Assembly: GCA_903825575.1 (NCBI GenBank)
Contig: CAIKAW010000047.1
Span: 21,891-85,890, forward strand
Length of the DNA stretch: 64,000 nucleotides
Reading direction: 5' to 3'
Source: an uncultured bacterium
GTDB lineage: Bacteria; Actinomycetota; Actinomycetes; S36-B12; CAIKAW01
The notes beneath the pieces are model-generated. The model ran no database searches and had not been told where the DNA came from. It was given only the letters and a program-made list of their open reading frames with translations. Below, piece by piece: positions 23,570-50,466 of the stretch. Within the stretch, counting starts at the first letter, position 1. The number at the start of each line of letters is the position of its first letter. A program made the position numbers and the translations under genes.

Positions 23570-23595
23570 CCGGGGGCTACAGAAAGGCACTACCA

Positions 23596-25520: not shown

Positions 25521-25603
25521 AAGTTCGACCCTAGCCTGCCGATTTGCTAACCAGCGACACGAATCCAACCCGCAACCCGGTTTTCATCGTGGTGTTAATC
25601 ACC

Positions 25604-27029: not shown

Positions 27030-27037
<8 letters not shown>
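25604..27037 (-). CDS. gltD: glutamate synthase small subunit (NADPH)
   Basis: 477 aa with N-terminal Fe-S cysteines and two GxGxxG dinucleotide folds. The GTG start overlaps the gltB stop. Confidence 0.92.
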
Positions 27038-31598
<4,561 letters not shown>

Positions 31599-34630: not shown

Positions 34631-34726
34631 CTTCACGTTGATTCCCTTCTTGGTTCTCCAGGTCCGGCGGAGCGCCATCCCTGGTTCTTGCGTTTAGCGA
34701 AAAGCCGTGCACTTGCCGGTCAGAAA

Positions 34727-35587: not shown

Positions 35588-36738
35588 CTTCCGTGCCTTC
35601 GTGGCCCCGCCGAAACAAGGTCGGACGATTTGTCGGACTCACCTTCAGCGGACTTGCCCCGACGTCCATGGTTCGGTACCGGCCGCGCGCCTCGGATTGA
35701 GCGCAGGTACATCACCACCAAGAAGAGCAATAGGAGTAGTCCGCCATCGCTCCACGGGACGGCCCAAATCCCAACCGCAGCCCTTGCCGTTGCTGCACTG
35801 GGATCTGCATCGCCGGCCGGAACCACGGGGGTCACTTGAACCTGGGCAGTCAGGTGCACCAATGCGGGCACACCAGTGACTGTGACGCTGACGACGGCGG
35901 AACCGCCCGGCAACAGCATCGGAAGGTCAGCGACTGCGGCCGCCGGGTAGGACAGTCCAACCAGCGAATGCAGCACCACCTGTTGCTGCCCGCCGAGGCG
36001 CACGTTGCCAGAGTTGCGCACCCGGTAGGTCACCACGGCTGCGCCGGTGCCGAATGGATTCACCGTACCGACGAAGTGCGCCTTCAAATTATCGACCGTG
36101 AGTTGGCCCTGGATAGCGCCGGCGACTCGGATCGCAAGTCGGATGGCAATTCGTTGCTCGAGTTTGAGATTCGCGGCGTGGCTGCCGTTAGCTTGACTCT
36201 CAGATACCACCGAGGCCACGACGCCGGCGAGATGGTCGCCGATGTATGCCTCAGGTGGTACCTGAATCGTGAAGTTCACGATGACTGTCGTGCGTGCGGG
36301 CACGACGACAAAAGGTTTTTCGCCGGGAGTGTGGAACGTAACCCAAGTCGCCACATCGGTCGGCTTGGCCAATCGGGGATCAAGTGCAAGGGAACCATCC
36401 GCAGCATTCCGAATGGTCGCGGCATACAGATTGAGCCTAAGTGCGTGCTGGCTCAGGTTCACCAATGCGATCTGATCGGAGATCACTCCGGTTCTGGCCT
36501 GGACGAAGTCGAAGTTGGCGCGTCGATCGACCTTGCCGTTGGTGGCCGGTCCGATCCCAAATGTGTCAACCGCGGGGGTCGCGATGGACGTCGACGCAGC
36601 AGGTGACGGGGCTGGAGTCCCGGCCGCCAGGGCCGCAGCATTAGGGGCCGCCGCTAGTGCACACGCCAAGGCCAAGGAAGCACCCATTCGACTTGAGTAA
36701 CCTGACCGCGCCACCTGCTCATCACATCTTGTCGACAT
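35584..36738 (-). CDS. DUF916/DUF3324-like cell-surface protein with C-terminal membrane anchor (CscA-like)
   Basis: The pattern NFDF...G.ISDQIALVNLS...L.LNLY...W.TF...FVVVPARTTVIVNFTIQVP...GDHLAGVVAS, plus a late transmembrane helix and a basic tail, resembles DUF916 proteins of WxL clusters. The start is uncertain. I chose ATG 36738 because it lies downstream of a strong hairpin. The ORF-track start is 36825. Confidence 0.65.
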   Translation of the reverse strand: MSTRCDEQVARSGYSSRMGASLALACALAAAPNAAALAAGTPAPSPAASTSIATPAVDTFGIGPATNGKVDRRANFDFVQARTGVISDQIALVNLSQHALRLNLYAATIRNAADGSLALDPRLAKPTDVATWVTFHTPGEKPFVVVPARTTVIVNFTIQVPPEAYIGDHLAGVVASVVSESQANGSHAANLKLEQRIAIRLAIRVAGAIQGQLTVDNLKAHFVGTVNPFGTGAAVVTYRVRNSGNVRLGGQQQVVLHSLVGLSYPAAAVADLPMLLPGGSAVVSVTVTGVPALVHLTAQVQVTPVVPAGDADPSAATARAAVGIWAVPWSDGGLLLLLFLVVMYLRSIRGARPVPNHGRRGKSAEGESDKSSDLVSAGPRRHGR

Positions 36739-36780
36739 GACTGGCAGCCCACGGGACGGTGAACGCCGGATTACGGAAGT

Positions 36781-36804
36781 GGGGCGAACCCGAAGGTCCG
36801 CCCC
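36781..36804 (-). other. stable intercistronic RNA hairpin with cUUCGg tetraloop
   Basis: The minus-strand RNA reads GGGGCGGACC-UUCG-GGUUCGCCCC (10 bp, one G-U pair). It starts 45 nt after the 637-aa gene stop and has no U-tract. Confidence 0.55.
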
Positions 36805-36848
36805 ACTTCGTAATGCTCGATCCATGAATACCGGACCGAGCTTTGGAT

Positions 36849-38762
36849 CTAGCTACCGAGAACCGTGAAGGTCAAGGTTCCTAGGTAGGTGCCATCAACC
36901 GTGTTAGTTGGGGCGTTGATCGACAGAAGTCCGTGGATGACCGTGGTGCCCTGACCGCTGTTCGCGTGAAGGACCTCGTGTCCACTTACTCCGCCAAGGC
37001 CAGCACTGCCCGTGTCTGATGCTGACAGGTGTGCACCTGCAGCGTTGTCAAACGCGGAGAAGTTCTGCCCAGTCGTGCTCGCACCGATCGCCAAGCTGCC
37101 CAAGAACGTGCTCGGGGTTGCGTTCGTCGAGGTGAGCAGGAGGTTGGTCAAGCCGACGTTCTCGCCACTGATCTGCTGAGCATTGCTCGGCGAACCGCCA
37201 ATACCCTGCTTGACCAAGTTCGATGCCAGCGCGCTCAACGTGTACGCCAGGTTACCCGGACGGGTGTCCAGCACCGAAATGCCAGCGAACTGACCCGAGG
37301 TCGAGTAGTTCGTGACGTTCGAGTCGATCGTCATGTCGGGAAGAACCAGCGGCGACCCAGTCGAGTAAGGCGTCGACAGCGTGATTGTTCCGGGCTGGAT
37401 GGTCGTCTCGATGCCCGCCACTGCCGGGGTGTATGCCGGCAGAGCAACCACGAGTGAGGCTGCACTGCTCTGCGACGACTGGTAGGTCAGCGAGTCCGTT
37501 GGCGTAAACACAGCGTAAATGTTGCTGTGCGTTGCCACGGTCAGGCTGCTTGACGACACATTGAACGTGAAGGGCGAGGAAGCGGCCGTCAAACCGATCT
37601 GCACTCCGTTGTCAAACAGAGCAACGGTTCCAGCGGTCAGTGGGCTTCCACCAACCGTTACGACCGCCGTGACCGAGAAAGCGTCAGGCTGATTGACCGT
37701 GCCGGTGCCGTCAACACTTGTGATGTTGCCGAGTGTGGTCACGGTCGCAGCAGCTGCCGTGTGGTTCACCCGGAACGTCAAAGCCGACGACGTGCTGCTG
37801 CCCAGGTCGCTGAAAGCAGCCGGAGTGAACGCAGCCGTGATCGTGTGGTTCGTAAAGGCGCCCGACTCTGAAAGGGCAGACGTGGTCACGCCGAGCGTCT
37901 GGCCGGCCGAGGTGATCGTCTGGGCTGCGCCCAAGGCGACGCCGCCGTCGTAGAACTGGACCGAACCACTGGCCGGGTTAGTGCCGGTGGCAGCCGTGAC
38001 CGAGGTTGAGAAGGTCACGCTTGTGCCTGCGTACTGTGGGCTGGCCGGGCTAGCCGTAGGAGTCGCCACCGTGGTCGTGCGGATAACGGCCGCCGGGTAG
38101 ATGACCTGCCAGTTACCCGGCGCCAAACCATCGGAGAGCGCTGATCCACCGTTGTTGTACTCAATGTCGGTGGACCAGAAGTAGTTCGGGCTGTTGACGC
38201 CAGTGGAAGCCAGGCCAATGCCACCGTCCTTAACCCGAACCTGGATGACATTGGCGTAGCCTGCCGACGAATCCAGCGAGGCAACACCAAGCAAGTTGGT
38301 GAGGTTGACATCGCTTGACCCCAGCGTGACGACCGGCACCGTGGTGCCGAGCGCCGCAAGGTTCGACGGTGAGCCGACGGGGAACGAGGTCGACGCCGAT
38401 CCCGAGAAGGTTGCCCACGTGAGCGAGTTGGCCTTGGTGTGGTCCGGTACGCCGAAAATGACGTTGGCGAGGTTTGCGTTGGTCCGGGCCGCTGTTCCGG
38501 TCGTCGAGACGTAGGCGGCCAAGTTGGAAAGGTTTGTTCCGCCGGTGATCACGTTGCCCGAAGAGTCGTAAAAAATGATGCCACCCTTGGAGTTTTGGTC
38601 AAGGTTGGGGTAGTTCAGTGCCGAGGAGAAAAGGGTGTTGCCCGTTTCCCAAGCCGGGGTGCCCGTGTATGCCGAAGCACCAGTCACCCCCGCGACGATG
38701 CCGACGCCTGCGAGCGCCAGAGCTGCAGTCGAAGCGATAGCAGCCTTTCGGAGTTGCTTCAT
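36849..38762 (-). CDS. large secreted surface protein: shared N-terminal domain, two Ig-like repeats and a C-terminal degenerate WxL-like domain (CscC-like)
   Basis: Signal peptide MKQLRKAAIASTAALALAGVGIVAGVTGASA. The N-domain is about 60% identical by eye to the 627-aa paralogue. The C-terminal ~185 aa follow the WxL layout (GTITLS..., ISVLDTRPGNLAYTLSA, ...GTYLGTLTFTVLGS). Confidence 0.8.
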   Translation of the reverse strand: MKQLRKAAIASTAALALAGVGIVAGVTGASAYTGTPAWETGNTLFSSALNYPNLDQNSKGGIIFYDSSGNVITGGTNLSNLAAYVSTTGTAARTNANLANVIFGVPDHTKANSLTWATFSGSASTSFPVGSPSNLAALGTTVPVVTLGSSDVNLTNLLGVASLDSSAGYANVIQVRVKDGGIGLASTGVNSPNYFWSTDIEYNNGGSALSDGLAPGNWQVIYPAAVIRTTTVATPTASPASPQYAGTSVTFSTSVTAATGTNPASGSVQFYDGGVALGAAQTITSAGQTLGVTTSALSESGAFTNHTITAAFTPAAFSDLGSSTSSALTFRVNHTAAAATVTTLGNITSVDGTGTVNQPDAFSVTAVVTVGGSPLTAGTVALFDNGVQIGLTAASSPFTFNVSSSSLTVATHSNIYAVFTPTDSLTYQSSQSSAASLVVALPAYTPAVAGIETTIQPGTITLSTPYSTGSPLVLPDMTIDSNVTNYSTSGQFAGISVLDTRPGNLAYTLSALASNLVKQGIGGSPSNAQQISGENVGLTNLLLTSTNATPSTFLGSLAIGASTTGQNFSAFDNAAGAHLSASDTGSAGLGGVSGHEVLHANSGQGTTVIHGLLSINAPTNTVDGTYLGTLTFTVLGS

Positions 38763-38897: not shown

Positions 38898-40352
38898 TCA
38901 GTCGGCTGAGGTCACCGTGTTGAGGAACGAGTACGCCGGGGTGAACCCTGACGACGAGATCAGGGCCGAAGCGGCCGCTGTATCGAAGTAGGGCGCCCCA
39001 CCAGGTCCAAATGTGTTCGTTCCATCGGTCGTGCAACCTTGTGAACCGGCTACCCCAAGCAGCGCCACGTTACCGAACGAGGTGCCCGAGCAAGGGTTGG
39101 CGAACAACGTACGGATCAGGTTCTGGTTGATGCCAGGCTCAAACTGGTCCGCGTGGTTACTGATTTCCGCGTTGCGGAAGTAGATGTAGACATCGCGCGT
39201 GGTCTTCCACCAGCCAGCACCGGTCTGCTGCGTGACTGCCGGCGCCCAAGCTGCAGGCTGTGGGAAGTTGATTGACGACACTGCGCCAACACCACACGAA
39301 ACGTTGGTCGTACCGTAGCCCGTGCCACCGGCGCTTCCGACAGCGTTGCTGCCGTAGGTGCAGGAGGGGTCGACGAAGTACGGGTAGGCGCTCGAACCGG
39401 CGTTGTTCGTGCCATCACCCTTGAGCCCGAGGAAAAGGTTCATACGGGCACCTGAGATTGGTTCGATTGCGTCAGCCTTTGAAGTCACCTGGGCGATCGC
39501 TTCGGGGTCGTTCTCTTCAACGGCGGTCGCGCAGTTGCCTGGCACGAGCGCGGTAACCTGACCGACTCCAGTGGTAGCCGAGGCGAAGAAGCTGAACGTG
39601 CCCGAGGCAGTCTGCGGGTAGAGCGGCACGATGACGTTGGCGCTACCACCGCTGTTGCCGGCGATCTCGTTCCAAGTCACGCAACCTGTGCCACCGAAAC
39701 CGTTCGTGCCACCTGTAGTGGCAGAGTAGATCTTGTAGATGTCCGCGGCTGAAAGCGCGACCGCGTGAGTGGTGGCTGCGGTAAGCATGACGAAGTTCTC
39801 GGTGCCGACAGTGATTCGGGAAGTCGAACTAGGTGTCGTGAACGAACTACCCTTTTTGGCCGAGGACCGAGCAAAGTCGATGTTCTTCAACGCACCAACA
39901 ATGTCATTGTTGAGAGCTCCTACGCCGGCACCTGAGCCATTCGGCCGCTGAACTGGGCGCAACCCAGCGCGCAAGACGATCGTCGGGTTCAGCTGGCAAA
40001 CCGTGTCAACGTGGAACACGCTGGCCAGGCCGGTACCAGTCTTCGTTCCAGTGCCCGGCGAACATGAGCCCTGAGTGGATCCGACAACGCCGTAAGCCAG
40101 GCGCGCATTCGCGTCGGCGGTGGCGTCAAAGTTGATGAGTCGGTTGACGTTGCCGAGGGCGTTGAAGCCGGTGGCGCCGAGGTGATTTCCATCGGCGACG
40201 AAGTCGACGAGGTACTGCAAGGTGTCGGAACCAACGCCGACGGCGTCGCCCGTACCTGGTGCGTAGTCGGCCGAAGCCGGACCTGCGGTTAACACGGATA
40301 GCGCGAGGGCTCCCGCGGCAGCCGCGGTTACCGCGAGCTTCTTGATCTGCAT
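38898..40352 (-). CDS. secreted PstS-family / type-2 periplasmic-binding-protein-like protein, Cys-rich, no anchor
   Basis: ATG 40352 gives the signal peptide MQIKKLAVTAAAAGALALSVLTAGPASA. PstS-like motifs are present: VGSDTLQYL, NGSGAGVGAL...IDFARSS, VTWNEIAG, ASGTFSFF. It has 8 Cys. Confidence 0.72.
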   Translation of the reverse strand: MQIKKLAVTAAAAGALALSVLTAGPASADYAPGTGDAVGVGSDTLQYLVDFVADGNHLGATGFNALGNVNRLINFDATADANARLAYGVVGSTQGSCSPGTGTKTGTGLASVFHVDTVCQLNPTIVLRAGLRPVQRPNGSGAGVGALNNDIVGALKNIDFARSSAKKGSSFTTPSSTSRITVGTENFVMLTAATTHAVALSAADIYKIYSATTGGTNGFGGTGCVTWNEIAGNSGGSANVIVPLYPQTASGTFSFFASATTGVGQVTALVPGNCATAVEENDPEAIAQVTSKADAIEPISGARMNLFLGLKGDGTNNAGSSAYPYFVDPSCTYGSNAVGSAGGTGYGTTNVSCGVGAVSSINFPQPAAWAPAVTQQTGAGWWKTTRDVYIYFRNAEISNHADQFEPGINQNLIRTLFANPCSGTSFGNVALLGVAGSQGCTTDGTNTFGPGGAPYFDTAAASALISSSGFTPAYSFLNTVTSAD

Positions 40353-40531
40353 TTGCTGTCCCCTTCCGGACAGAGGCGTTTGAACAGGATCAAATTGGCA
40401 GGGCAACACAACGACCGGGCATGCCTACTCTTAACAATGAGTGAACCGATCAGGTCAACTTCAAGATCCGGCTCAGGAACGGTGCCAGATAGTCCGATGG
40501 AGCCAGGTTCGCCCGCCGACGGGGACAGGCG

Positions 40532-41383
40532 TTACAGCAGATTTGGCAGCAGGCGGATCGCTGATTCACTGGCCAACCAGAGTCCGGCGAGGACGAGCGG
40601 CAGTCCTAGCAGCCAGGTTTGCCACCTTCCCCAGCGGAACCAAGCCCAAACCACCAACGCCGCAATCGCGATCAGCAAGGGAAGCGCCAAGGCCAGTGGC
40701 AGCAAGCCATTGGGATCCACTTGCAGCGCCTGTTCGGAGAGGGGGACCGCTGCAGGCCGTCCCGGAAGTGTCGCTAGACCCGTACCCTTCAGTGCCGCAT
40801 CTATGTAGAGCAAACCTCGAGCGGACAGTCCTGCAAACCCGAGGTGGCTGCCCGTTACAAGCGTGAGTCGGCCACCGCCGAGCGCCAGTGCCGGCGGCAA
40901 GTTGTCGCCGCCCTGTCTAAGTCCGGACACCGTGTAGGAAAAGACGCCCTGCCCCGTCGTGGCGGTGATCGTGTCGCCCACCTTGATGCGGGCCAAAGCC
41001 CCGAATGGGCCGCCAAACAAGGTCGCGCGACCGTAGAGCACCGAGTCGCCCGACTGCCCCGGCAACGGAGTATCCCGTCGGTGTCCTACTCCAGCCTCGA
41101 GGTCGCCGGCAGCGGTCCCTTCGATAACAACAGCATTGGTCAGGCCAATCGCGGGGACTGTGAGCAAAGCGACCGGAGATCCCGGGGCGATGCTCCCACC
41201 CAGCGGTGCAGTTTGGGCGGCCAATTGCGCCCGCAGGCTCGAATACAGGCCAGCTTGCTCGTGGGCGGTCTGCATCGGCGTGAGGAACACTGCGTAGGCG
41301 ACGAACCACAGCGAGAGCGCGGAAACGGTTCCGAGTACCCAGGCAGAAACTCCTCTAGGTATCGAAACTGGTCTACGCGCCAT
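40532..41383 (-). CDS. sortase-fold membrane protein lacking the catalytic Cys/His/Arg (pseudo-sortase)
   Basis: N-terminal transmembrane helix, then LLTVPAIGLTNAVVIEGT...GVGHRRDTPLPGQSGDSVLYGRATLFGGPF...IKVGDTI...FSYTV...RLTLVTGSH. This parallels class E sortase blocks, but AGHR is replaced by YGRA and TLVTC by TLVTG. The protein has no cysteine at all. Two extra C-terminal transmembrane helices follow. Confidence 0.7.
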   Translation of the reverse strand: MARRPVSIPRGVSAWVLGTVSALSLWFVAYAVFLTPMQTAHEQAGLYSSLRAQLAAQTAPLGGSIAPGSPVALLTVPAIGLTNAVVIEGTAAGDLEAGVGHRRDTPLPGQSGDSVLYGRATLFGGPFGALARIKVGDTITATTGQGVFSYTVSGLRQGGDNLPPALALGGGRLTLVTGSHLGFAGLSARGLLYIDAALKGTGLATLPGRPAAVPLSEQALQVDPNGLLPLALALPLLIAIAALVVWAWFRWGRWQTWLLGLPLVLAGLWLASESAIRLLPNLL

Positions 41384-44088
41384 CAGGCTCGACTCCAGAA
41401 TCCGGTGATGATGGTGCCGATACCGCTCACCAGAGCAAGGACTAGCAGGGCGGGCAGCACCAGACCAGCCCCACCTTGTGGCGAACCGGCGGTTTGCCCC
41501 ACCGCTGCGATCGCCGACATTGACGGCAAGGCCGAAGGTGTGACCGACACAGTTGGGGTCGGGCTCGCAACGGGACTACTCGTAGCCGTTGCTGCAGGAG
41601 TCGGCGACGGTGTCGGCGGCCTTGATGATCCGTCCACTGCGGGCACGTAGCCCTGCTGAGCCAGGATCGCCGCACCTGCCTCTTGGTCGTACGCCAAAAG
41701 CGAGCCAGCTCCATTGGCTAGCGTCAATGGAAGGAAGCCGCCCGGCAATTGCCCATTGGCCGGTCCCGGCGATTGACCGGTCGTTGTGGTCCAGTCCAGC
41801 AACGTGGCGAATCGCTGAGCATCTGCCACAGCCAGTCCCTGAGTCGGCACATCCAACGTGAAGATCATCGTCCCGGGGTAGCCCGCGGATCCAGCCTTAC
41901 TCGCCAGCAAGTCATAAGGCACGGGCCAGGCCTGCACCGCCTTAACGGGCTGGAACAGTTTCAGCGCCGCCCGTAGCGATGCGACTGTCGGCGCCACGAA
42001 TAACCTGCCAACGGCGCTGGTGAAAGCGGTGCCAGAGCCAGAAGCAACCGACGATTGCAGGGACGCCGTGTGGAATTGGTAACGAGATGCGTCCGCCAGC
42101 GACACCAGCCCTAGGACGAATCGCTTGGTTGGGGTTTCCCGGCCAATCGATGTCAACTTTTGATTCGACTGCCCCGGATTTGTGCACACGATCTGTGAGT
42201 TGGCAATCGCGAACTGCATGTTCAGCGACACCAAGGCGGGATCGCTCACAGGTGCCGCTGCCAAGTTGAGCCACGGTGTCGGATTTGCGCCAATGCAAGG
42301 ATTGATAGTCGCCGTATACGGGGATATGAAAGAGTCTCGCAATGTCCAGCCTTCGACCGGCAACGTGATGTGATCGTAGTTGGGGTTGACTCGCATCCCC
42401 CAAGGGTCGGGTTGACCATTGATGAATGCTCTCGCCTCTGGATCGGCAGCTAGGTAAGCCGTAAGCGACCGGATCATGTCCGAGTCACTGTTGACAGTGA
42501 AGAGCGTCGATGCTGCGACCGTGCTGTAGCCATCGTTGAGAAGGGCCGGATTCAACGCCCGGAACTCAGGGTCGCGACCAAGGTCGAGCGGATTGCCGCG
42601 CACCCCGATGTATTCCCCCGACAGCGTCGGATTTGACGCGTAGGACTGCGTTAGCAACTTGGCCAAGAGTCGTGGAGTTAGGTTTAACGTAGTGAGCGGC
42701 TGACCATTCGCCCCGTCAATCGAGAAGGCGATGGCAAAACCACTCACGGCGATCGGTGCCTGCACAATTGGTTTCGTGAATGGCGTCAAAGGTGCAGCCC
42801 CGGCGAAAGCTGCACTGATATTGCCGACGTTAAGAAGATTCTTGGCTTCCGGCTCGCTGGTCTGAACGTGCTGAAACCGGAACAACTTGGGATCGGTACA
42901 GAAGGTTGGCTGCCATTGGAGCGTCGCCTGAACCAGGGCCTGCGAACCGTAGATCAGGGACGGTGCCGCGGAAGACGCCAGATCGCAGACGTTCGAAGGC
43001 GGTACGAAACTCAGCGGGAAACTAATCCGATTGCGCCAGTTCGACGCGGACCACCACAGTTCGCCGGCCACGGCCATGTCTTCGGAGCCGTTTTGCACCG
43101 GCGCAGGAATGGCTGGATCGTAGTGCCCGGTCGCCGAGCACGTCTTGAAGTACATGGCCCGAAACTTCGCTTGCGGTTGGTCAACCGCGGGTAGGTCGGC
43201 GCCGACGACATCGCAGCTAATACCCATGATCGGGATAACGACCAGCGAACACGGCACGGTCGAGGAGCAACCTAACGACGCGTTTGACTCGGCAGTGTTG
43301 ATCACGAACTTGGCAGCGCCGTTGCCCGAAAGATCGGTGCTGGCGTAGGTCGTGTTCTCCGGAATCTGGGCCTGTTCGACACTTGCCTCTGGCGCCATTC
43401 CACCGCAGCCGTTTGGACCTCCGGGATACACGGTTCCGTTCGCCGTAACGAAAGGAACCCAGTGGTCTGTTCCACTCGACGTACCGACGCAGGCTGCCGG
43501 GACGGGATCAGGGATGCCGACCCGAAACTGTCGATCCAGCGAACTCGCGTAGCGGTCCACCCGAAATGGAGGGAACGGCGAGTTCACTGAAAGCATCCGC
43601 TCGTCGGGAACCTGGGTCCAACACGTACTGGGGTCAATCCGCTTTGCTGCCGCGACACTTGCGCTATCAATCCCGCGACATTCCATGATCACAACCGGGT
43701 ATTCCAAGCTAGCCGCGAGCAAGGAGTTCGGATCGGTTACGAAGCCACCGGTCGGGTGCGCACCACTCCAACTGACGTTAACCGGCTGCCGGTTGCGCAG
43801 GTTAGTAGTCACATCGACTGACACAGTCACGTTCCGGGTGTCAGCAACCTGGTCGGCCCCATTAACTAGGTGCACGCGGGTGACAGTCACTGTCTTGGAG
43901 ACCGCCGAAGCGGCGGCTGGAATCGCGGCCTTCCTGACCTTGGGGCTAGTCGCGGCACCGTAGGCCGGAGCGACGACAACGAGGCCAACAGCGGCGGCCA
44001 CGAAGGTGCAAAGAAGAATGCGGAAACTCGTTCGATCGGTATGCATTCGTCTTTTCGACCTGCCAAGTCGATTGCGTACCGAAATCAC
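41383..44088 (-). CDS. 901-aa Cys-rich secreted protein: N-terminal unknown domain, degenerate PstS-like binding-protein domain, Pro/Thr/Ser linker and C-terminal transmembrane anchor
   Basis: GTG 44088 forms GTGA with the upstream stop; an alternative ATG lies at 44046. Signal peptide present. Residues ~375-815 align by eye to the PstS layout. The linker is PPTPSPTPAATATSSPVASPTPTVSVTPS, followed by a hydrophobic helix. Confidence 0.75.
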   Translation of the reverse strand: MISVRNRLGRSKRRMHTDRTSFRILLCTFVAAAVGLVVVAPAYGAATSPKVRKAAIPAAASAVSKTVTVTRVHLVNGADQVADTRNVTVSVDVTTNLRNRQPVNVSWSGAHPTGGFVTDPNSLLAASLEYPVVIMECRGIDSASVAAAKRIDPSTCWTQVPDERMLSVNSPFPPFRVDRYASSLDRQFRVGIPDPVPAACVGTSSGTDHWVPFVTANGTVYPGGPNGCGGMAPEASVEQAQIPENTTYASTDLSGNGAAKFVINTAESNASLGCSSTVPCSLVVIPIMGISCDVVGADLPAVDQPQAKFRAMYFKTCSATGHYDPAIPAPVQNGSEDMAVAGELWWSASNWRNRISFPLSFVPPSNVCDLASSAAPSLIYGSQALVQATLQWQPTFCTDPKLFRFQHVQTSEPEAKNLLNVGNISAAFAGAAPLTPFTKPIVQAPIAVSGFAIAFSIDGANGQPLTTLNLTPRLLAKLLTQSYASNPTLSGEYIGVRGNPLDLGRDPEFRALNPALLNDGYSTVAASTLFTVNSDSDMIRSLTAYLAADPEARAFINGQPDPWGMRVNPNYDHITLPVEGWTLRDSFISPYTATINPCIGANPTPWLNLAAAPVSDPALVSLNMQFAIANSQIVCTNPGQSNQKLTSIGRETPTKRFVLGLVSLADASRYQFHTASLQSSVASGSGTAFTSAVGRLFVAPTVASLRAALKLFQPVKAVQAWPVPYDLLASKAGSAGYPGTMIFTLDVPTQGLAVADAQRFATLLDWTTTTGQSPGPANGQLPGGFLPLTLANGAGSLLAYDQEAGAAILAQQGYVPAVDGSSRPPTPSPTPAATATSSPVASPTPTVSVTPSALPSMSAIAAVGQTAGSPQGGAGLVLPALLVLALVSGIGTIITGFWSRA

Positions 44089-45740
44089 GACGTGGACCTA
44101 CGGCGTCGGATGAAGTAGAAGTAGATGACCGGAGGCAACGCGAGCAGCGCGATCAGTTCCAAAGCCACAACAGGAGCTAACTGGCTGGTCAGATCGATCG
44201 CTCGGTAGGGACCAACCTCGGTGACCGTGCCAGTCACGTCGGCCGCGGAAACACCCCCATTCCCATTTCCACTCGTGCCAGTGCCAGTGCCTGAGCCCGT
44301 GCCGGTCCCTGTTCCCGTGCCAGTCCCCGTCCCAGTGCCAGTACCCGTTCCAGCACCAGTACCAGCACCCGTTCCAGTGCCCGTACCCGTACCCGTTCCA
44401 GTGCCAGTACCAGTACCCGTCGTGCCGTTGTTGCCGCCGTCCGTGCACGGCCCGGTGCCGCCCTTGTCGCACGATGGCGGCTGCGGAGCGATTTCGGCCA
44501 AGTAGTTACGCGTCGGTTGGCCCGCAACGAAGGTCGGGTTGTGGCAGGTCGTGATGTTTCTTGACGTCAAGTCAACGCCCGAGTCGGCGGTCTTGAGTTT
44601 GGCCGTTTGTTCGAAACTTGCCTGCACCAGGTTGACAGGCAAAGGCGAATATCCGATGGGTCCCATCTCGGCTTGCCCTTGGCAGATCGAGTAATAGAGG
44701 AAGTCAGCCAGCGTCTGGCGCTTAGCCGTTGTCATCCTGGAGTCGTTCGATGCAGTTGGAATGATCATGTAGGAGTACGAGGACAACGGATACGTCCGTT
44801 TGTCGCTGTAGGTGTAGACCTTGTCCAGATTCTGCAGCAAGTAGTCCGGCGAAGTCTTATTTTGATTGATCTGGGCCTGCGTCAACGCCACGGCCACGTT
44901 GTATTGCGTCGGCAAAGTGAAGTAGCCGGCAGTGTTCTCGATCTTGGCAACCGGGTAGTTCTTTGACAGCGCGTACGAGAATTCGTCGTAGCCGATAGAC
45001 CCATTGGCCGCCCCAGAACTGATGAAGTTAATCACGCCGTCCGAACCGTTTTGGGCGATCGCGCCACCGCGACGGGGAAAGTACTCAGTTAGACCCGACT
45101 GACCAAAGAACGGACGCCAGATGGTGGGGTACTGCTTATCCAAGTAACGGGTGAATTGCGCGCTGGAACCTGAGCCCTCCGAGTGCACCACCGGGATGAT
45201 CTGAAGTGACGGCAACTTGCGCCCGTTGTTGTCGGTCGTGATGGCCGGGTCATTCCAGTTCGTGATCTGGTTCGTGAAGATCTTTGCCAGCGTAAGGCCA
45301 GAGAGACGAAGGTTGCGAACAAGCTGCCCCGCCACCTGAATCTGATAGGGGAAGGACGTGCCACCCGCCACCACAGGAAGGTAGGCGAAGCCTCGGCAGG
45401 TCGTCTTGTCGGCCGGGTTAAGGCATGGTGAGTCACTGTCGCTAGTTACTGCGTCCACACCTTGATATCCGATGTCGGAAACGGCGTAATCGGTAGTCCG
45501 ATTCGTGAAGTCCTTGCGCCCCTGCGCTGAACCTGTCGAGGTGTAGACAACCTGCAAACCGCTGGAAGAAACATCGGCCACCCACTGGTTGACTGCATTA
45601 GCACTCCAGCTTGAGCCGGACCCTGTGATCTGCGCATGGCTACCAGCGGCCGTTGCCGCTGGAACGGTGGCCACCAGCGCCGTGCCGGCCATCGCGAAGA
45701 CTGCCAGAAGCAGCCGGACTCCGCGGGCGGTGGGTTTCAT
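44085..45740 (-). CDS. pstS: PstS-like phosphate-binding protein with Gly-Thr repeat stalk and C-terminal transmembrane anchor
   Basis: ATGA overlap with the pstA stop. AxA signal peptide with no lipobox Cys. PstS blocks are present: ITGSGSSWS, STGSAQG, DYAVSD, ITNWNDP, VVHSEGSGSSAQFTRYL, GSIGYDEFSYA, YPLSSYSYMIIP. These are followed by a ~50-residue (G-T)n tract, a hydrophobic helix and an RRRRSTS tail. Confidence 0.82.
   Translation of the reverse strand: MKPTARGVRLLLAVFAMAGTALVATVPAATAAGSHAQITGSGSSWSANAVNQWVADVSSSGLQVVYTSTGSAQGRKDFTNRTTDYAVSDIGYQGVDAVTSDSDSPCLNPADKTTCRGFAYLPVVAGGTSFPYQIQVAGQLVRNLRLSGLTLAKIFTNQITNWNDPAITTDNNGRKLPSLQIIPVVHSEGSGSSAQFTRYLDKQYPTIWRPFFGQSGLTEYFPRRGGAIAQNGSDGVINFISSGAANGSIGYDEFSYALSKNYPVAKIENTAGYFTLPTQYNVAVALTQAQINQNKTSPDYLLQNLDKVYTYSDKRTYPLSSYSYMIIPTASNDSRMTTAKRQTLADFLYYSICQGQAEMGPIGYSPLPVNLVQASFEQTAKLKTADSGVDLTSRNITTCHNPTFVAGQPTRNYLAEIAPQPPSCDKGGTGPCTDGGNNGTTGTGTGTGTGTGTGTGTGAGTGAGTGTGTGTGTGTGTGTGTGSGTGTGTSGNGNGGVSAADVTGTVTEVGPYRAIDLTSQLAPVVALELIALLALPPVIYFYFIRRRRSTS
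44270..44425 (-). repeat. Gly-Thr dipeptide repeat tract encoded with mixed synonymous codons
   Basis: The minus strand reads GGN-ACN repeats with occasional Ala/Ser. All three GGN/ACN codon variants are intermixed. The tract creates spurious repeat ORFs in the other frames. Confidence 0.9.
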
Positions 45741-46849
45741 CGCTTACCGACCTTCTGTCTGGCGAGGAATCGCGTGATCACAAAGAGAATCAGAACAAGT
45801 GCGAGAAGGACGCTGGCTGCGCCGAATCCGCGCGCGATGAACTCTGGCTCACCACTTCGTACGGCCGAGAACACATAAAGCGGCAATGAGTTCATCGGCT
45901 CCTGCAGCGGGTTCACGTTCGTGTACGTAGATGCACCCGACGTAAGGAGCACCGGCGATGTCTCCCCAACCCCTCGGGCGATACCCAGAATCAGCGCAGT
46001 CGCGAGGCCTGAACGCACGGTAGGAATCACAACCTGTCGAACGGTCTGCCACTTCGAGGCACCCAATGCAAGGCTCGCCTCGCGCAGTCCACCAGGCATC
46101 ACACGTAGCACGACATCCGCAGACCGAGCGATAATCGGAAGCATCATCACCGAGATTGCCGCAGCGGCCGCGATCCCCGTGCGGGAGATGCCAAGCATCA
46201 CAATCAGGATTGTGTAGATGAAGAGTCCGGCAACGATCGACGGTAAAGCGGTCATGGCTTCCACAAGGGTGCGAACAACTTTCGAGAACCGTCCGCCGAC
46301 TTCGTTCAAATAGATAGCAGTTCCGACACCCAGTGGAAGCGTTACTGCGATCGCGATACCAATCTCGATAACGGACCCGAGAACGGCGTGCAAGATGCCA
46401 CCGCGGCTTAGCGCATCGGTGGGTCGGACGCCGGCCATGTCCTTGGTGAAGAAGTTCAAGTGAGTCAAGGCCGGGAAGCCCCGGACGAAGGTGAACATGA
46501 TCGAGGTGAAAAGCGCGAAGAAGACGAGCGCCGCTGCGCCACGGATTGCGGCCCCCACCACTCGATCAACTACGACCTGACTGGGATTGCCCACCGCAGT
46601 AGCCCCAGCAAAAAGGGCAAGGAATAGGCAGTACCACAGCACCAAGAACCCCAACGTTCCTGAGAACGGCAGGATCTTCGTGTAAAGCAGCCAATCGAGC
46701 GCCAGGGCTCCGGCGACGGCGCCTACGAACGAGAAGAGATCGTCCTGGGTGCGGGACTTAGTGGCACGCGGATGGTCTGGTTCGGCGACGGGCAGAATGC
46801 CAGCATTGGCTTCTTGCGGATTCTCACGGAAGTCCAGTTGATCAGTCAT
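45737..46849 (-). CDS. pstA: phosphate ABC transporter permease PstA
   Basis: 370 aa with EASLALGASKWQTVRQVVIP...ARGVGETSPVLLT, a PstA-type signature. Confidence 0.9.
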   Translation of the reverse strand: MTDQLDFRENPQEANAGILPVAEPDHPRATKSRTQDDLFSFVGAVAGALALDWLLYTKILPFSGTLGFLVLWYCLFLALFAGATAVGNPSQVVVDRVVGAAIRGAAALVFFALFTSIMFTFVRGFPALTHLNFFTKDMAGVRPTDALSRGGILHAVLGSVIEIGIAIAVTLPLGVGTAIYLNEVGGRFSKVVRTLVEAMTALPSIVAGLFIYTILIVMLGISRTGIAAAAAISVMMLPIIARSADVVLRVMPGGLREASLALGASKWQTVRQVVIPTVRSGLATALILGIARGVGETSPVLLTSGASTYTNVNPLQEPMNSLPLYVFSAVRSGEPEFIARGFGAASVLLALVLILFVITRFLARQKVGKR

Positions 46850-46857
46850 CAGCGTTC

Positions 46858-47886
46858 CTAGTCCGTAACCGCGCCACTACGACTGCGACTTACGATCGTG
46901 GCAGCCAAGGTGTTCACAATCAGCGTGATGATGAACAGCACGAATCCGGCCGTAAGCAGTGCCGACAATTGAGCTGAGGTGGCTTCGCCAAACCGGCCAG
47001 CGATCAATGCGGAGACGGTACTGGTCCCGACCTCAAGCGGACGGAACTTGATGTCAAACGACGGCGAGATAATCAGGACCACTGCGATCGTCTCGCCAAG
47101 GGCCCTACCCATGCTCAGCATCGTCCCGCCGATGATGCCGCCACGGCCAAAGGGCAACACGACGGTGCGGATCATCCCCCACTTGGTGGACCCCAAAGCC
47201 AAAGCCGCTTCCCGCTCGCCCAACGGCGCTTGCGAGAAGACTTGCCGCATAACAGCAGCAGCCATTGGCAACACCATCATCGAAACGGCGATGCCGGCGA
47301 TAAAAGCTGAGGCCGCGTAACGGGATTGAGCCCACACGGGCGCATTCGGATCGGTATCAACGTGAAAGAACGGAAGAAACCCTAAGTTCACATTCAGCCA
47401 GTGCGCCAAGTTGATAGCCCGGGGCTGCAACAGGAAGAAACCCCAAAGTCCCCAAACAATGCTTGGAATCGCGGCCATGAGGTCGATCATCGAAACCAGC
47501 AGCCCCTTGATCCGCGGGACTGCGTACTCACTGATATATAGCGCAACGCTCAGAGCTAGCGGGAACGCAATCGCGAGGGCCACCACCGCCACAGTGAACG
47601 TTCCGAGCAGGACAGCTGATATGCCAAGGATGTCTCGTTCTGGCAACCACTGGTTCTGTGTGAAGAAGGACAAGCCGTAGCGCTTGAACGTAGGGATTGA
47701 CTGCACACCCAGAAAGACGCCGATGGCGCCCATGATGAGGAGGACCAGCACCCCGACCGCTCGTGCCCCGGCATAGAAGATCCGATCGACCCGAGGCAGT
47801 GCCGGATCAATCGCTCGCGGACGGTCTTCGTCAACTCCACTTGGATCAGGCAATGGGGTCTGACCTAGATCGATCAGAATCGTCAT
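46858..47886 (-). CDS. pstC: phosphate ABC transporter permease PstC
   Basis: 342 aa with EAALALGSTKWGMIRTVVLP...GRALGETIAV, a PstC-type signature. Confidence 0.9.
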   Translation of the reverse strand: MTILIDLGQTPLPDPSGVDEDRPRAIDPALPRVDRIFYAGARAVGVLVLLIMGAIGVFLGVQSIPTFKRYGLSFFTQNQWLPERDILGISAVLLGTFTVAVVALAIAFPLALSVALYISEYAVPRIKGLLVSMIDLMAAIPSIVWGLWGFFLLQPRAINLAHWLNVNLGFLPFFHVDTDPNAPVWAQSRYAASAFIAGIAVSMMVLPMAAAVMRQVFSQAPLGEREAALALGSTKWGMIRTVVLPFGRGGIIGGTMLSMGRALGETIAVVLIISPSFDIKFRPLEVGTSTVSALIAGRFGEATSAQLSALLTAGFVLFIITLIVNTLAATIVSRSRSGAVTD

Positions 47887-47964: not shown

Positions 47965-48786
47965 TCAGCCGAAGCGGCCATTCACGTAGTCGGCTGTCCG
48001 TTGATCAACAGGACTTTGGAAGATCTGTTCGGTGTCACCGACTTCGACGATCCCACCTGGCGTCCCTTGCTCAGCGAGGAAGAACGCGCACTGCTGAGAC
48101 ACGCGAGCAGCCTGCTGCATGTTGTGCGTCACGATCACAACGGTGACTTGTTCGCGAATCTCAGAGATGGTCTCTTCAACGCGACGGGTCGATGTCGGAT
48201 CCAGTGCCGAGCAGGGCTCATCCATCAAGAGCACCTCGGGCTCGACCGCTAGCGATCGAGCGATGCACAACCGTTGCTGCTGACCACCAGATAGTGCGCT
48301 TCCCGGCTCCTTCAGGCGGTCTTTCACTTCCTTCCACAACCCTGCGCGCGTCAAACTCGTCTCAATGATCCAGTCACGGTCGCTACGCCAGTTCTTCACG
48401 CCAGCCAACTTGAGTCCCGATACAACGTTGTCTGCGATCGACATGGCTGGGAATGGGTTGGGCTTCTGGAAGACCATGCCAATCCGCTTGCGCGTGGCGG
48501 TGATGCGGTGGCCCGTCGCGTAGATGTCCTCACCGTCAAGAAGCACTTCACCATTAAGTCGGGCAGACGGCACCAACTCGTGCATCCGGTTGAGCACGCG
48601 CAAGAATGTTGACTTGCCGCAGCCGGACGGCCCGATGAGCGCAGTCACTGTCTTCGCTGGCATGTCGAGAGATACCCGTTCAAGGACCTTGTTGCTTCCG
48701 AACCAAGCTGAAACGCCTTGGGCTGAAAGGACGCCGCCTGAGAAATCGGTGACCCGGCCGGTGGCGGGACTCAACAACACGCTCAT
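47965..48786 (-). CDS. pstB: phosphate ABC transporter ATP-binding protein PstB
   Basis: [42 protein letters not shown] and YVNGRFG motifs. I moved the start to ATG 48786, preceded by GGAGAGAGGAAAGG. The ORF-track start at 48810 is TTG. Confidence 0.93.
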
Positions 48787-48868
48787 GCCTTTCCTCTCTC
48801 CAGCGGTCAACGTTGAGGCCTACTAGGCCCGCGTTTGCTGGAATCAAACTTGCCTCAGCGGTTACAAC

Positions 48869-48912
48869 GACGTGCCGACCCAAGGTGAACAGAAGGTGTC
48901 CATTTCATGAAC
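48869..48912 (-). promoter_or_regulatory. PHO-box-like array: four 11-nt direct repeat units upstream of pstB
   Basis: The minus strand reads GTTCATGAAAT GGACACCTTCT GTTCACCTTGG GTCGGCACGTC. The unit starts at 48912, 48901, 48890 and 48879 are exactly 11 nt apart. The array ends about 83 nt upstream of the pstB ATG. Confidence 0.65.
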
Positions 48913-49594: not shown

Positions 49595-50458
49595 TCAGGA
49601 TTCTGGAACGACCGAGGCCGAATCCGACAAGATCTCACCATTGGCCAAATCCTCGCGCCCGGGATGCCGGCGGGCCGAAATCACCAGGTACGCAACCGCA
49701 CCCACGCCCACGATCAGTGACGTCCAATCGTTTAGGCGCAGACCGCCAATGCGGTGCGCCGAGTCAATGCGCAGCGACTCAATCCAGCCTCGGCCAATCG
49801 TGTAGAGCAGCACATACAGCGCAAAGACCCGCCCGTGTCCCATCTTGTAGCGCCGGTCGGCCCAGATCACTACAGCCGCAACGCCCAAACACCAAAGCGA
49901 CTCGTACAGGAACGTCGGGTGGAAGGTCGCGAAGTTCGCGTAACCCACGGGGCGGTGCGCCGCGTCAATGTGCAATCCCCAAGGCAACGACGTCGGGCGG
50001 CCGAACAACTCTTGGTTGAACCAGTTGCCCCAACGTCCCATTGCTTGAGCGATCGCAACAGCTGGTGCAATCGAGTCAGCGAACGGTGGCAGCGCCAGTC
50101 CGCGACGCCGGCAACCGATCCACGCACCCACTCCCCCAAAGGCAACCGCACCCCAGATCCCTAGGCCCCCGTCCCAGATCTTCAGTGACGCTAGGAAACC
50201 GCGACCGCCGGGGCCGAAGTAGATCTGGTGATCAGTGATGACGTGATAGATCCGGCCGCCAATGATGCCAAACGGGACCGCCCAGATCGCGACGTCGCCA
50301 ACCATGCCGGGCTTGCCACCACGCTCGCGCCAGCGTCGCTCGCCAAACCAGACCGCAAAGATAATCCCAGCAAGGATGCACAATGCGTAGGCGCGAATCG
50401 GGAACGGCCCTAGAAACCAGACGCCCTGATGGGGGCTAGGCAAATACGACCGGACCAC
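49595..50458 (-). CDS. lgt: prolipoprotein diacylglyceryl transferase
   Basis: 287 aa, polytopic, with the IGRWGNWFNQELFG-type motif (MGRWGNWFNQELFGRPT). It sits in the conserved position after trpA. Confidence 0.92.
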   Translation of the reverse strand: MVRSYLPSPHQGVWFLGPFPIRAYALCILAGIIFAVWFGERRWRERGGKPGMVGDVAIWAVPFGIIGGRIYHVITDHQIYFGPGGRGFLASLKIWDGGLGIWGAVAFGGVGAWIGCRRRGLALPPFADSIAPAVAIAQAMGRWGNWFNQELFGRPTSLPWGLHIDAAHRPVGYANFATFHPTFLYESLWCLGVAAVVIWADRRYKMGHGRVFALYVLLYTIGRGWIESLRIDSAHRIGGLRLNDWTSLIVGVGAVAYLVISARRHPGREDLANGEILSDSASVVPES

Positions 50459-50466
50459 CGACGTGA

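Follow-up and report, generated by a model that had tools for sequence, protein, structure and literature searches.

The window analysed here, a stretch of 64,000 nucleotides, carries on its minus strand an open reading frame (44085-45740, whole gene including the stop codon) that encodes a PstS-like protein of 551 amino acids. Its features, all on the same strand, begin with a Sec-type signal peptide without a lipobox cysteine (about residues 1-33; 45642-45740), recognised by hydropathy and motif scan, followed by a ligand-binding domain with the PstS fold (residues 34-377; 44610-45641), delineated with phmmer against PstS crystal structures and with an AF2 model submitted to Foldseek. A conserved C-terminal extension of this domain (residues 378-432; 44445-44609) leads into a low-complexity, disordered stalk (residues 433-517; 44190-44444), a C-terminal transmembrane helix, LAPVVALELIALLALPPVIYFYFI (residues 521-544; 44109-44180), and a basic tail, RRRRSTS (44088-44108).

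The PstS fold of the head is supported by a Pfam match to PBP_like_2 (PF12849; residues 30-353, E 2e-33) and by the AF2 model, whose top Foldseek matches are PstS crystal structures with TMt values of up to 0.79. The best E-value is obtained for M. tuberculosis PstS3 (4lvq, TMt 0.78) and the highest TMt, 0.79, for 8ods and 7xg8. With the PstS equivalog model TIGR00975 the protein scores 183.1 bits, under the cut-off of 205, and with NF008171 it scores 98.7 bits against a cut-off of 339. The model is of moderate quality (pLDDT 68.5) and poor in the N-lobe, where residues 24-82, the region carrying two binding loops, have pLDDT values <50; the pocket geometry was therefore not taken from it. A sub-cut-off Pfam match to TrAA12-like (residues 358-502, E 0.0013) was treated as a low-complexity artefact. 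Cysteines are found at positions 106, 115, 353, 399, 424 and 432, of which C353, just upstream of the C-terminal extension, and C399, C424 and C432 within it are invariant among 45 homologues; the CCCC pattern is retained across the wider family. C424 and C432 both fall within PPSCDKGGTGPC. The four conserved cysteines presumably pair in disulfides.

Only two hydrophobic segments are detected by hydropathy, the signal peptide (about residues 5-32) and residues 515-545. The signal peptide ends in ...PAATAAG/SH at the putative cleavage site, and the pattern A-x-A...SH.xI.GSGSSW is common to homologues, immediately past the predicted site. The motif scan found no lipobox ([LVI][ASTVI][GAS]C) in the protein, the first cysteine being residue 106, and an lgt gene scoring above the TIGR00544 cut-off is located at 49595-50458. 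With the same type of scan, LPXTG and LAXTG motifs were found neither in the PstS-like protein nor in the C-terminal parts of its neighbours in the cluster. None of the curated C-terminal sorting-domain models of NCBIfam (PGF-, PEP-, GlyGly-, MYXO-CTERM and similar) scored above threshold, and the sole match, to Heimdall-CTERM, reaches 13.1 bits against a cut-off of 24 (E 0.097).

The stalk, delimited from the TRF array, the pLDDT profile and the linkers of the family, is a disordered linker of about 90 amino acids containing a 51-residue (GT)n tract (residues 439-489; 44274-44426), whose DNA is a tandem repeat of period 6 (44274-44420, TRF score 140). In the AF2 model, residues 440-516 are disordered with pLDDT <50 and a helix spans residues 518-549. 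Across the family, linkers are 74-165 amino acids long and rich in G, T, A, S and P, and at least five consecutive GT repeats occur in 3 of 150. The regular Gly-Thr repeat is lineage-specific and the G/T/A/S/P-rich stalk the general feature. Ahead of the helix lies a motif, DVTGTVTEVGPYR (44202-44240), whose columns are conserved in 180 non-redundant C-termini, with the family consensus D[VL]xG[VT]PT[ED]L[AS]A; no known sorting-signal model matches it. In the same set of C-termini, Pro536 of the helix is 99% conserved, the next Pro 79% and the helix Glu 42%. The helix is found in 73 of 74 genome-encoded homologues, and all 74 have at least two Arg or Lys among their last 20 residues; following the positive-inside rule, the basic tail would be cytoplasmic.

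These results bear out what the preliminary description had read from the sequence: a complete PstS-like domain followed by two close cysteines, a signal peptide ending in AATAAG without a lipobox cysteine although lgt is nearby, a G-T tract of about 50 residues, a hydrophobic helix and an RRRRSTS tail. It had also considered that the helix might be absent and that the tail might come from a frameshift or fusion artefact. The frequency of the helix and of its Pro residue speaks against the former; the latter is ruled out, since the stalk, the helix and the basic tail are conserved features of the family as a whole. The PstS-like protein is probably attached to the cell through a long flexible stalk that leads to a membrane helix at the C-terminus, and not through a lipid anchor. 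The layout of motif, helix and basic tail also resembles that of cleaved sorting signals, so that the mature protein may have lost the helix.

This architecture is common to more than 2500 homologues of 530-630 amino acids, with related genes in the genomes of at least 183 species of Actinomycetota; the identical sequence is absent from the protein collection searched. Among the carriers are lineages of fresh water and soil (Nanopelagicales, Frankiales, Nocardioides, Acidimicrobiia). Some PstS-like heads of the wider family are fused to WxL-like or Ig-like C-termini, which replace the helix. The architecture defines a large actinobacterial family and is no isolated case among Gram-positive bacteria. 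The preliminary description had associated the tethering design with archaea rather than Gram-positive bacteria; the archaeal precedent is real (PMC3387779), but the restriction to archaea does not hold for a design found throughout this family. The open-access literature searched on pseudo-sortases, on PstS with a C-terminal TM segment and on PstS, sortase and WxL proteins in Actinobacteria yielded no description of the family or of its gene cluster.

In the ligand pocket, the block H186-S-E188-G-S-G-S192 (45165-45185) takes the place of R-x-D-G-S-G-T. Alignments to PstS structures in the PDB and to E. coli PstS make His186 equivalent to Arg135, Glu188 to Asp137 and Ser192 to Thr141, confirming the earlier reading that the Arg of the clamp is absent. 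The His and Glu are invariant in 121 of 121 close-homologue sequences, and a subclade has Gln-Glu (Q-x-E) instead. The remaining phosphate contacts are retained (T10 to S44, F11 to W45, S38 to S71, D56 to D89, S139 to S190, G140 to G191 and T141 to S192), R135 to H and D137 to E being the only contact changes relative to E. coli PstS beyond this kept or conservative set. The alignment of the 121 sequences shows conservation of D89, S71, S44/W45 and S190-G191-S192. In PstS, the Asp equivalent to Asp89 selects protonated phosphate. Among 150 representatives of the wider family, the clamp pair is RxD in 87, HxE in 39, QxE in 4, RxE in 3 and HxD in none, so that R goes with D, and H or Q with E; with this pairing, the pocket looks maintained rather than decayed. 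An RxD-clamp member that also has a TM tail (P0252) is encoded in the same type of cluster.

Upstream of the PstS-like gene, on the same strand, lie genes for a pstB-like ATPase, the first gene of the operon (47965-48810; TIGR00972, 348.7 bits, cut-off 343.2), a pstC-like permease (46858-47886; TIGR02138, 242.6 bits, cut-off 196.45) and a pstA-like permease (45737-46849; TIGR00974, 207.7 bits, cut-off 193.45). The TIGR00974 match covers residues 104-365 only, and the pstA-like permease has two extra N-terminal hydrophobic segments (37-56 and 59-88). Its stop codon overlaps the start of the PstS-like gene (ATGA), which is translationally coupled to the pstB/C/A-like genes. The order pstC-pstA-PstS-like is identical in 81 of 82 related loci, the remaining one being a short contig with the PstS-like gene only. 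The pstB gene is directly upstream in 51 of these loci; in those of the Nocardioides/Marmoricola type it occupies the distal end of the cluster. In a single genome (locus L044), a canonical pstS-pstC pair adjoins the cluster, the sole such locus seen; this makes the system an additional one, with a substrate that could be something other than plain phosphate.

A consensus scan located a PHO-box-like array of three 11-nt direct repeats (GTTCATGAAAT GGACACCTTCT GTTCAC...) 5' of the pstB-like gene (48885-48912, minus strand), the only match in the 64 kb, with none in 100 shuffles. The reference consensus is G[G/T]TCAYYYR[G/C]G (PMC2275107), and the array is a candidate site for PhoP binding. In 8 of 59 related loci, the third PBP gene is preceded, at a distance of 35-50 nt, by exact GTTCAY-N5-GKTCAY pairs, and about 10 of 51 have convincing repeats upstream of pstB. 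A recognisable box is absent from most related loci in this simple scan, and PHO-box regulation is therefore supported for part of the family only.

Downstream, the cluster continues on the minus strand with a gene (41383-44088) for a 901-aa secreted protein composed of an N-terminal beta-rich region, a PstS-fold domain, a Pro/Thr/Ser linker and a C-terminal TM helix, as assigned by AF2, Foldseek and hhalign. This protein has no match in Pfam or NCBIfam; its AF2 model (pLDDT 85) has only PstS structures as top Foldseek matches, with TMt of about 0.7, and hhalign aligns it with the PstS-like family over 295 columns. The gene is directly downstream in 69 of 82 related loci, and nearly all of the others are contigs that end before it. 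Next comes a sortase-fold pseudoenzyme of 283 amino acids (40532-41383), always encoded two genes downstream of the PstS-like gene, with one N-terminal and two C-terminal TM segments. The match to the Sortase model of Pfam is confined to profile positions 1-83 of 125, and with a family profile the closest structure is the class E sortase 5go6 (E 1.5e-18). In 62 sequences of this pseudo-sortase, the catalytic Cys position is occupied by S in 29, A in 28, G in 3 and T in 2, and the His position by R in 50, K in 9 and H in 3, the window copy having Arg; 23 of the 62 have no Cys at all. An active sortase next door is ruled out by three alignments, in which the catalytic His and Cys (TLxTC) are missing.

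The third PBP-like protein (38898-40409; 503 amino acids), secreted and without an anchor, aligns with the PstS-like family in hhalign with a probability of 88%, and its orthologues have PBP_like_2 on record. It is followed by a WxL-type wall-protein module (32795-38762) that encodes a Big_3_5/WxL-like protein of 637 amino acids, a WxL-interacting-protein-like protein of 413 amino acids with a TM segment, a 286-aa TM protein and a Big_3_5 protein of 627 amino acids, assigned by Pfam with the help of orthologues. WxLIP_PGBD is matched by 8 of 14 orthologues of the 413-aa protein (best 1e-7) and WxL by 3 of 16 orthologues of the 637-aa protein (best 3e-5), the window's own copies being under the Pfam thresholds. 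Related loci have the module on one side of the core or the other, upstream or downstream, and the order of the cluster is kept in the approximately 80 loci examined. In this comparison of gene neighbourhoods, the PstS-like family always shares one cluster with a transporter of the phosphate type and a sortase that is catalytically dead. The conserved neighbours (pstBCA-like genes, second anchored PstS-fold protein, pseudo-sortase and WxL-type module) were not part of the preliminary description and change the context of the protein.

We consider it reasonably probable that the PstS-like gene encodes the tethered substrate-binding protein of a second, Pst-type ABC importer controlled by phosphate starvation. 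The protein would use the Sec pathway for export and be processed by signal peptidase I, its single C-terminal helix keeping it at the membrane with the Arg tail in the cytoplasm. The flexible Gly/Thr stalk of about 90 residues, possibly O-glycosylated, would let the PstS-fold head roam the cell wall and come back to the PstC/PstA-like permease, whose genes lie immediately upstream. Orthophosphate is the most likely ligand, bound through the conserved Asp89 and the Ser/Gly loops, and the His186-Glu188 pair would take over the role of the usual Arg-Asp pair. Phosphate starvation probably switches the operon on through PhoP. The conservation of the helix, with its near-invariant Pro, and of the pre-helix motif suggests that the tether may also dock onto partner membrane proteins of the cluster, with the pseudo-sortase, the PstS-fold protein of 901 amino acids and the additional hairpin at the N-terminus of PstA as candidates. 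Against this reading stand the low confidence of the modelled N-lobe, the lack of a recognisable PHO box in most related loci, the resemblance of the tail to cleaved sorting signals, the canonical pstS-pstC pair beside the L044 cluster, the sub-cut-off TIGR00975 score (183 vs 205) and the canonical clamp Arg, which is missing in every close homologue.

The TIGR00975 score and the missing Arg favour a different ligand for the same fold and tether. The His/Glu pocket would then bind, and the importer take up, another phosphorus oxyanion or a phosphate ester, such as wall teichoic-acid or glycerophosphate fragments, pyrophosphate or polyphosphate ends, phosphite or arsenate. The canonical pstS-pstC pair next to the L044 cluster would fit such a division of labour, and the two further PstS-fold proteins and the wall-binding WxL-type proteins look as if the substrate were wall-associated. 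However, Asp89 and all hydroxyl and backbone contacts are retained, sister members of the same cluster type have the canonical RxD clamp, and the permeases and the ATPase score as PstC, PstA and PstB equivalogs. Moreover, the phosphite and phosphonate binders known so far belong to a different protein family, and we regard a ligand other than free orthophosphate as unlikely. A scaffold, adhesion or sensing complex at the surface, in which the PstS-fold proteins would be binding modules for phosphate-containing wall polymers or signal receptors and transport would be secondary, could account for the co-inheritance of three PstS-fold proteins, a pseudoenzyme and a WxL-type module, and for the wider-family heads that carry WxL-like or Ig-like C-termini and no helix. 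It seems very improbable given a full ABC importer gene set above equivalog cut-offs and tightly coupled to the PstS-like gene, PHO-box-like repeats that fit a nutrient-scavenging regulon, and pocket residues conserved as expected of a small-anion site.

The fate of the C-terminus bears on the tether itself. Motif, helix and Arg tail could form a sorting signal whose helix is cleaved after export, leaving the protein released, lipid-modified or wall-attached by a machinery to which the adjacent sortase-like protein belongs or which it guides. Signals for sortases, archaeosortases and exosortases have this tripartite layout, the motif and the helix Pro are conserved far beyond the needs of a passive anchor, a sortase-fold gene is invariably nearby, and a haloarchaeal phosphate-binding protein has a predicted archaeosortase signal (PMC3387779). 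We nevertheless judge this improbable, as neither an LPXTG/LAXTG motif nor a sorting-domain model above threshold is found, the conserved motif lies about 8-13 residues ahead of the helix rather than abutting it, and the adjacent sortase homologue lacks the catalytic Cys in 62 of 62 sequences and has Arg or Lys at the His position in 59 of 62. Tentatively, the cluster of about 11 genes might be an undescribed actinobacterial phosphate-harvesting surface machine, in which three PstS-fold proteins (one tethered by stalk and helix, the 901-aa one membrane-anchored, and one free or wall-associated) capture the ligand and relay it through the wall to a dedicated Pst-type importer under PhoP. WxL-type proteins would fix them in the wall, and the dead sortase, re-purposed to recognise the pre-helix motif and the Pro-containing helix without cutting, would organise them in the membrane.

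Gram-positive binding proteins are usually described as lipoproteins. In many Actinomycetota, a PstS-type protein appears instead to be carried on a long stalk and anchored by a C-terminal helix, a design documented earlier for archaeal binding proteins. The paired, family-wide clamp change from Arg-Asp to His-Glu is a natural experiment on PstS affinity, selectivity and possibly pH dependence. The fixed tie to a sortase homologue that has neither of its catalytic residues suggests that the sortase fold has a role other than catalysis, and the tie to two more PstS-fold proteins and to wall proteins of the WxL type points towards an unexplored organisation of nutrient capture in a thick cell wall. 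Phosphate is often limiting for the freshwater and soil lineages that carry the cluster, and the existence of cultured carriers, among them Nocardioides sp. Root1257 and Jatrophihabitans sp. DSM 45814, makes these ideas testable.

Compared with known systems, the protein is closest to the PstS of PstSCAB (E. coli PstS, M. tuberculosis PstS1-3, Streptomyces PstS), with which it shares the fold, the Asp and Ser/Gly phosphate contacts and the adjacent pstC, pstA and pstB homologues, as well as PHO-box-like promoter elements as upstream of Streptomyces pstS. It differs from PstS in the His-Glu pair that replaces the Arg-Asp clamp, in its TIGR00975 score, in the missing lipobox, with a predicted mature N-terminus that begins right at the binding loop, and in the added four-Cys extension, long stalk and C-terminal TM helix; the gene order is B-C-A-S here and S-C-A-B in canonical pst. 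Another PstS-family protein without the clamp Arg is SphX of Synechocystis (S-type), which has Pro at this position and binds Pi about 26-fold more weakly than PstS1 (PMC13614923), so that the Arg is dispensable. SphX, a soluble periplasmic protein, has Ser in place of the low-barrier Asp and an Asp-Arg-Thr triad (PMC13614923), whereas the PstS-like protein retains the Asp (D-type) and changes the Arg-Asp pair only.

Among the neighbours, the 283-aa protein is most similar to the class E sortases of Actinobacteria (PDB 5go6, 5cuw; LAXTG substrates) but lacks the catalytic Cys and His, and the PstS-like tail has the hydrophobic helix and basic tail of sortase substrates without their LPXTG/LAXTG motif. 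The downstream module recalls the Firmicutes loci that combine WxL with WxL-interacting, DUF916-type membrane proteins, in that orthologues match WxL and WxLIP_PGBD, small TM proteins are encoded and some relatives of the PstS-like head end in a WxL-like segment. We know of no linkage of those loci to an ABC importer, PstS-fold proteins or a pseudo-sortase, nor was one found described in the open-access literature searched. The archaeal oligopeptide-binding proteins of Sulfolobus and Aeropyrum (PMC3387779) belong to another binding-protein family and another domain of life, their tail is non-homologous, and their Ser/Thr stretch is glycosylated, which is a possibility for the stalk here. Nevertheless, their combination of an SPase I signal, a Ser/Thr-rich linker and a single C-terminal TM segment as anchor recurs in the sequence features and the AF2 model of the PstS-like protein, and a surface machine built around it would be a functional parallel to the archaeal bindosome.

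Analysis of the open reading frame at 44085-45740 (minus strand, 551 residues) revealed a PstS-like protein with a predicted C-terminal membrane tether. Hydropathy gives only two hydrophobic segments, the N-terminal signal peptide and residues 515-545, and the AlphaFold2 model (mean pLDDT 68.5) places a helix at 518-549, behind a disordered region at 440-516. Residues 30-353 match PBP_like_2 (2e-33); against the PstS equivalog TIGR00975 the protein scores 183 bits, below the cut-off of 205, and the solved structures that best match the AlphaFold2 model are all PstS proteins (TMt at most 0.79). A motif scan of the protein found no lipobox, no LPXTG or LAXTG motif and no cysteine before residue 106. 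The Gly-Thr tract of about 50 residues spans positions 439-489, and the DNA behind it is an imperfect repeat of period 6 (44274-44420). All the elements listed for this protein in the preliminary description, including a signal peptide lacking a lipobox cysteine, the PstS-like domain, the tract and the C-terminal hydrophobic helix, were found in this reading frame, and lgt, which had been placed about 4 kb away, lies 3.9 kb upstream of the gene (49595-50458) and passes TIGR00544.

Among the candidates scored, a protein search gave at least 2500 matches at E <= 1e-5. The best 120 of these are 493-633 residues long, and nearly all combine a signal peptide and the start SH.xI.GSGSSW with a low-complexity region, a hydrophobic helix and an end rich in Arg. 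When one genome per species was scanned with two patterns, relatives were encoded in at least 183 species genomes, a lower bound because both patterns fit only the subfamily of the PstS-like protein; the lineages include Frankiales/Jatrophihabitans, Nanopelagicales, Sporichthyaceae, Pseudonocardiales, Nocardioides, Marmoricola, Dactylosporangium and Acidimicrobiia. Cultured carriers include Nocardioides sp. Root1257, N. hankookensis, Dactylosporangium spp. and Jatrophihabitans sp. DSM 45814. Four cysteines (353, 399, 424 and 432) are invariant in 45 homologues. The stalk is rich in G/T/A/S/P and 74-165 residues long (median 95.5), with GT runs of five or more repeats in only 3 of 150 family linkers. 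Across 180 non-redundant C-termini, the motif D[VL]xG[VT]PT[ED]L[AS]A sits ahead of the helix and a proline inside it (Pro536 here) is kept in 99%. An artefactual origin of the tail was ruled out, the helix being present in 73 and the basic tail in all 74 of the 74 complete genome-encoded homologues. The gene is called at 551 residues in two assemblies and at 549 in another (related locus L083 and two ENA/NCBI assemblies, from the same or a near-identical organism) with identical neighbours, which suggests that the Gly-Thr repeat varies in length.

The PstS-like gene takes fourth place in a compact operon on the minus strand. It follows pstB-like (47965-48810), pstC-like (46858-47886) and pstA-like (45737-46849) genes, each above its NCBIfam equivalog cut-off, and its ATG overlaps the pstA-like stop. 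Behind it lie the reading frames of a 901-aa protein (41383-44088) and a sortase-like protein (40532-41383) and, past a short gap, a 503-aa PBP-like gene (38898-40409) and a further module (32795-38762) encoding a 637-aa Big_3_5 protein, 413-aa and 286-aa membrane proteins and a second Big_3_5 protein, all on the minus strand. By tblastn, the order pstC-pstA-PstS-like is kept in 81 of 82 related loci. The 901-aa gene comes next in 69 of them, and 62 have the sortase-like gene after it; where one of these two is missing, the contig nearly always ends first. The pstB gene immediately precedes pstC in 51 of the 82 loci, and in loci of the Nocardioides/Marmoricola type it stands at the cluster's far end; the PBP/Big/TM module is found on either side of the core. 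Core metabolism genes flank the cluster (12901-31598 and 49595-51788), with lgt and probable trp genes upstream and, downstream, gltBD (glutamate synthase large and small subunits), pyk (pyruvate kinase), carAB (carbamoyl-phosphate synthase) and the pyr genes for dihydroorotase, dihydroorotate dehydrogenase and OMP decarboxylase. Window GC is unremarkable, and no compositional sign of recent transfer of the cluster was seen. Related locus L044 has a canonical pstS (VVAHRSDGSGT) followed by pstC (19283-21240, minus strand), encoded opposite to the cluster and a few kb away from it, so at least that genome holds the cluster as a second system beside a standard Pst system.

Three consecutive 11-nt direct repeats (GTTCATGAAAT, GGACACCTTCT and GTTCACCTTGG) occupy 48880-48912 (minus strand), some 70 nt ahead of the pstB-like start, and fit the direct-repeat consensus of Streptomyces PhoP, G[G/T]TCAYYYR[G/C]G (PMC2275107; PMC7866108). 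This array is the sole site of its type in the 64-kb window and was matched in 0 of 100 shuffles. Good repeats precede pstB in about 10 of 51 loci, and an exact two-unit PHO box (GTTCAY-N5-GKTCAY) precedes the third PBP gene by 35-50 nt in 8 of 59 (L002, L005, L006, L009, L034, L036, L041 and L072); the window's version of the latter, near 40426-40447, is weaker. Such sites support, short of proof, the assignment of the cluster to the phosphate-starvation regulon.

The 901-aa protein has no family match. Its AlphaFold2 model (pLDDT 85), whose best structural matches are PstS proteins (TMt about 0.7), supports a PstS-fold domain preceded by a beta-rich N-terminal region of about 300 residues, in agreement with a profile alignment to the PstS-like family over 295 columns; at its C-terminus a Pro/Thr/Ser linker leads to a TM helix. 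The 503-aa protein (hhalign probability 88% against the PstS-like family, orthologues recorded with PBP_like_2) is a third PBP-like protein, unanchored. The sortase-like protein has three membrane segments and is nearest class E sortases (family profile against 5go6, E 1.5e-18), with Arg at the catalytic His site and Gly at the Cys site of TLxTC. Because both catalytic residues are replaced across orthologues (S/A/G/T at the Cys site in 62/62, R/K at the His site in 59/62), 23 of the 62 having no Cys whatever, it is a conserved pseudo-sortase. P0235, a 1211-aa database protein, joins the 901-aa protein to a pseudo-sortase that has Arg in place of the His and Ala in place of the Cys, with consistent membrane topology; this single sequence may reflect a genuine fusion or read-through from an overlapping stop/start. 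The downstream module is an actinobacterial WxL-type wall-protein set, since orthologues of the 413-aa protein match WxLIP_PGBD (8 of 14) and those of the 637-aa Big_3_5 protein match WxL (3 of 16); both Big_3_5 proteins have WxL-like ends (...GTYLGTLTFTVLGS), and the module always co-occurs with the Pst-like core, on either side. The PstA-like permease carries about 100 extra N-terminal residues outside the PstA model, hydrophobic at 37-56 and 59-88, and pstA-like genes in related loci are similar in size (378-391 aa). The tether helices might dock at these extra segments.

Pocket residues were placed by aligning the PstS-like protein to PDB PstS sequences and E. coli PstS. S44/W45, S71, D89 and S190-G191-S192 fall at T10/F11, S38, D56 and S139-G140-T141 of the E. 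coli protein, and the departure from R-x-D-G-S-G-T noticed earlier is borne out, with His186 at Arg135 and Glu188 at Asp137. The clamp His and Glu show no variation across 121 sequences; Gln-x-Glu stands in their place in an Acidimicrobiia-like subclade. When 1.8 billion cluster representatives were searched with HMMER, 514 clusters passed E <= 1e-30, and among the best 150 of these the clamp pair is RxD in 87, HxE in 39, QxE in 4, RxE in 3 and HxD in none, so that the two positions covary as expected of a maintained interacting pair. As P0252, a database protein with an RxD clamp and a helix tail, shares the cluster type, the His-Glu clamp is a derived state of an ancestrally canonical pocket. 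The altered clamp raises the alternative that a ligand other than Pi is bound. SphX, with Pro at the clamp Arg position, still binds Pi, with an affinity about 26-fold lower than that of PstS1 (PMC13614923); given this and the canonical ancestral pocket, sequence comparison points to orthophosphate as the most likely ligand.

Less probably, the tail is a sorting signal that is cleaved. The cluster does encode a sortase relative, the catalytic pair of which is replaced, and the PstS-like protein carries neither of the sortase motifs sought. In the wider family the helix is sometimes replaced, and the PstS-like head ends WxL-like (...GTYTSTLTLTLVS) or with Ig-like domains (P0266-P0270, P0309, P0316, P0332, P0361-P0363, P0373, P0378 and P0385, and locus L085); the P0309 gene adjoins a WxLIP_PGBD-like gene. 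Since these relatives bear the same four-Cys head without a TM helix, the head is displayed through several kinds of anchoring. A further alternative gives the cluster a mainly structural or sensing role; its gene content combines a pseudo-sortase and putative wall proteins with pstB-, pstC- and pstA-like genes behind a PhoP-type repeat array.

From the features of the protein and its cluster, we infer a tethered phosphate-binding protein that would work as follows. Sec export and cleavage by SPase I would leave a mature N-terminus SH-AQITGSGSSW, right at the first binding loop, and the head would fold with disulfides. The C-terminal helix would stay membrane-embedded, leaving the RRRR tail inside the cell, while the stalk of about 90 residues, several nm as a random coil and at most about 30 nm fully extended, would let the head explore the wall space and come back to PstC/PstA. 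Asp89 and the Ser/Gly loops would hold Pi together with His186, which would be protonated and positioned by Glu188. The near-invariant helix proline and the pre-helix motif may serve for docking onto partners from the cluster; the pseudo-sortase, the 901-aa protein's helix and the two additional PstA segments are candidates.

Family members are publicly annotated as PstS or "substrate-binding domain-containing protein", and none of the curated models for families or sorting signals covers the PstS-like family. Searches of the open-access literature gave no account of a bacterial PstS anchored by a C-terminal helix, of the pseudo-sortase or of the cluster, and as a whole the cluster may be an undescribed system. 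Glycosylation of PstS in Streptomyces and Mycobacterium, cited in the preliminary description, is indeed reported (PMC7866108), and O-mannosylation of the stalk is plausible; the context there is Pro-rich, unlike the Gly-Thr repeat, and is matched by the Pro/Thr/Ser linker of the 901-aa protein. The tether design had been linked to archaea rather than Gram-positive bacteria. Archaeal binding proteins are the nearest documented design (PMC3387779), but the predicted architecture recurs in the relatives encoded in these Actinomycetota genomes.
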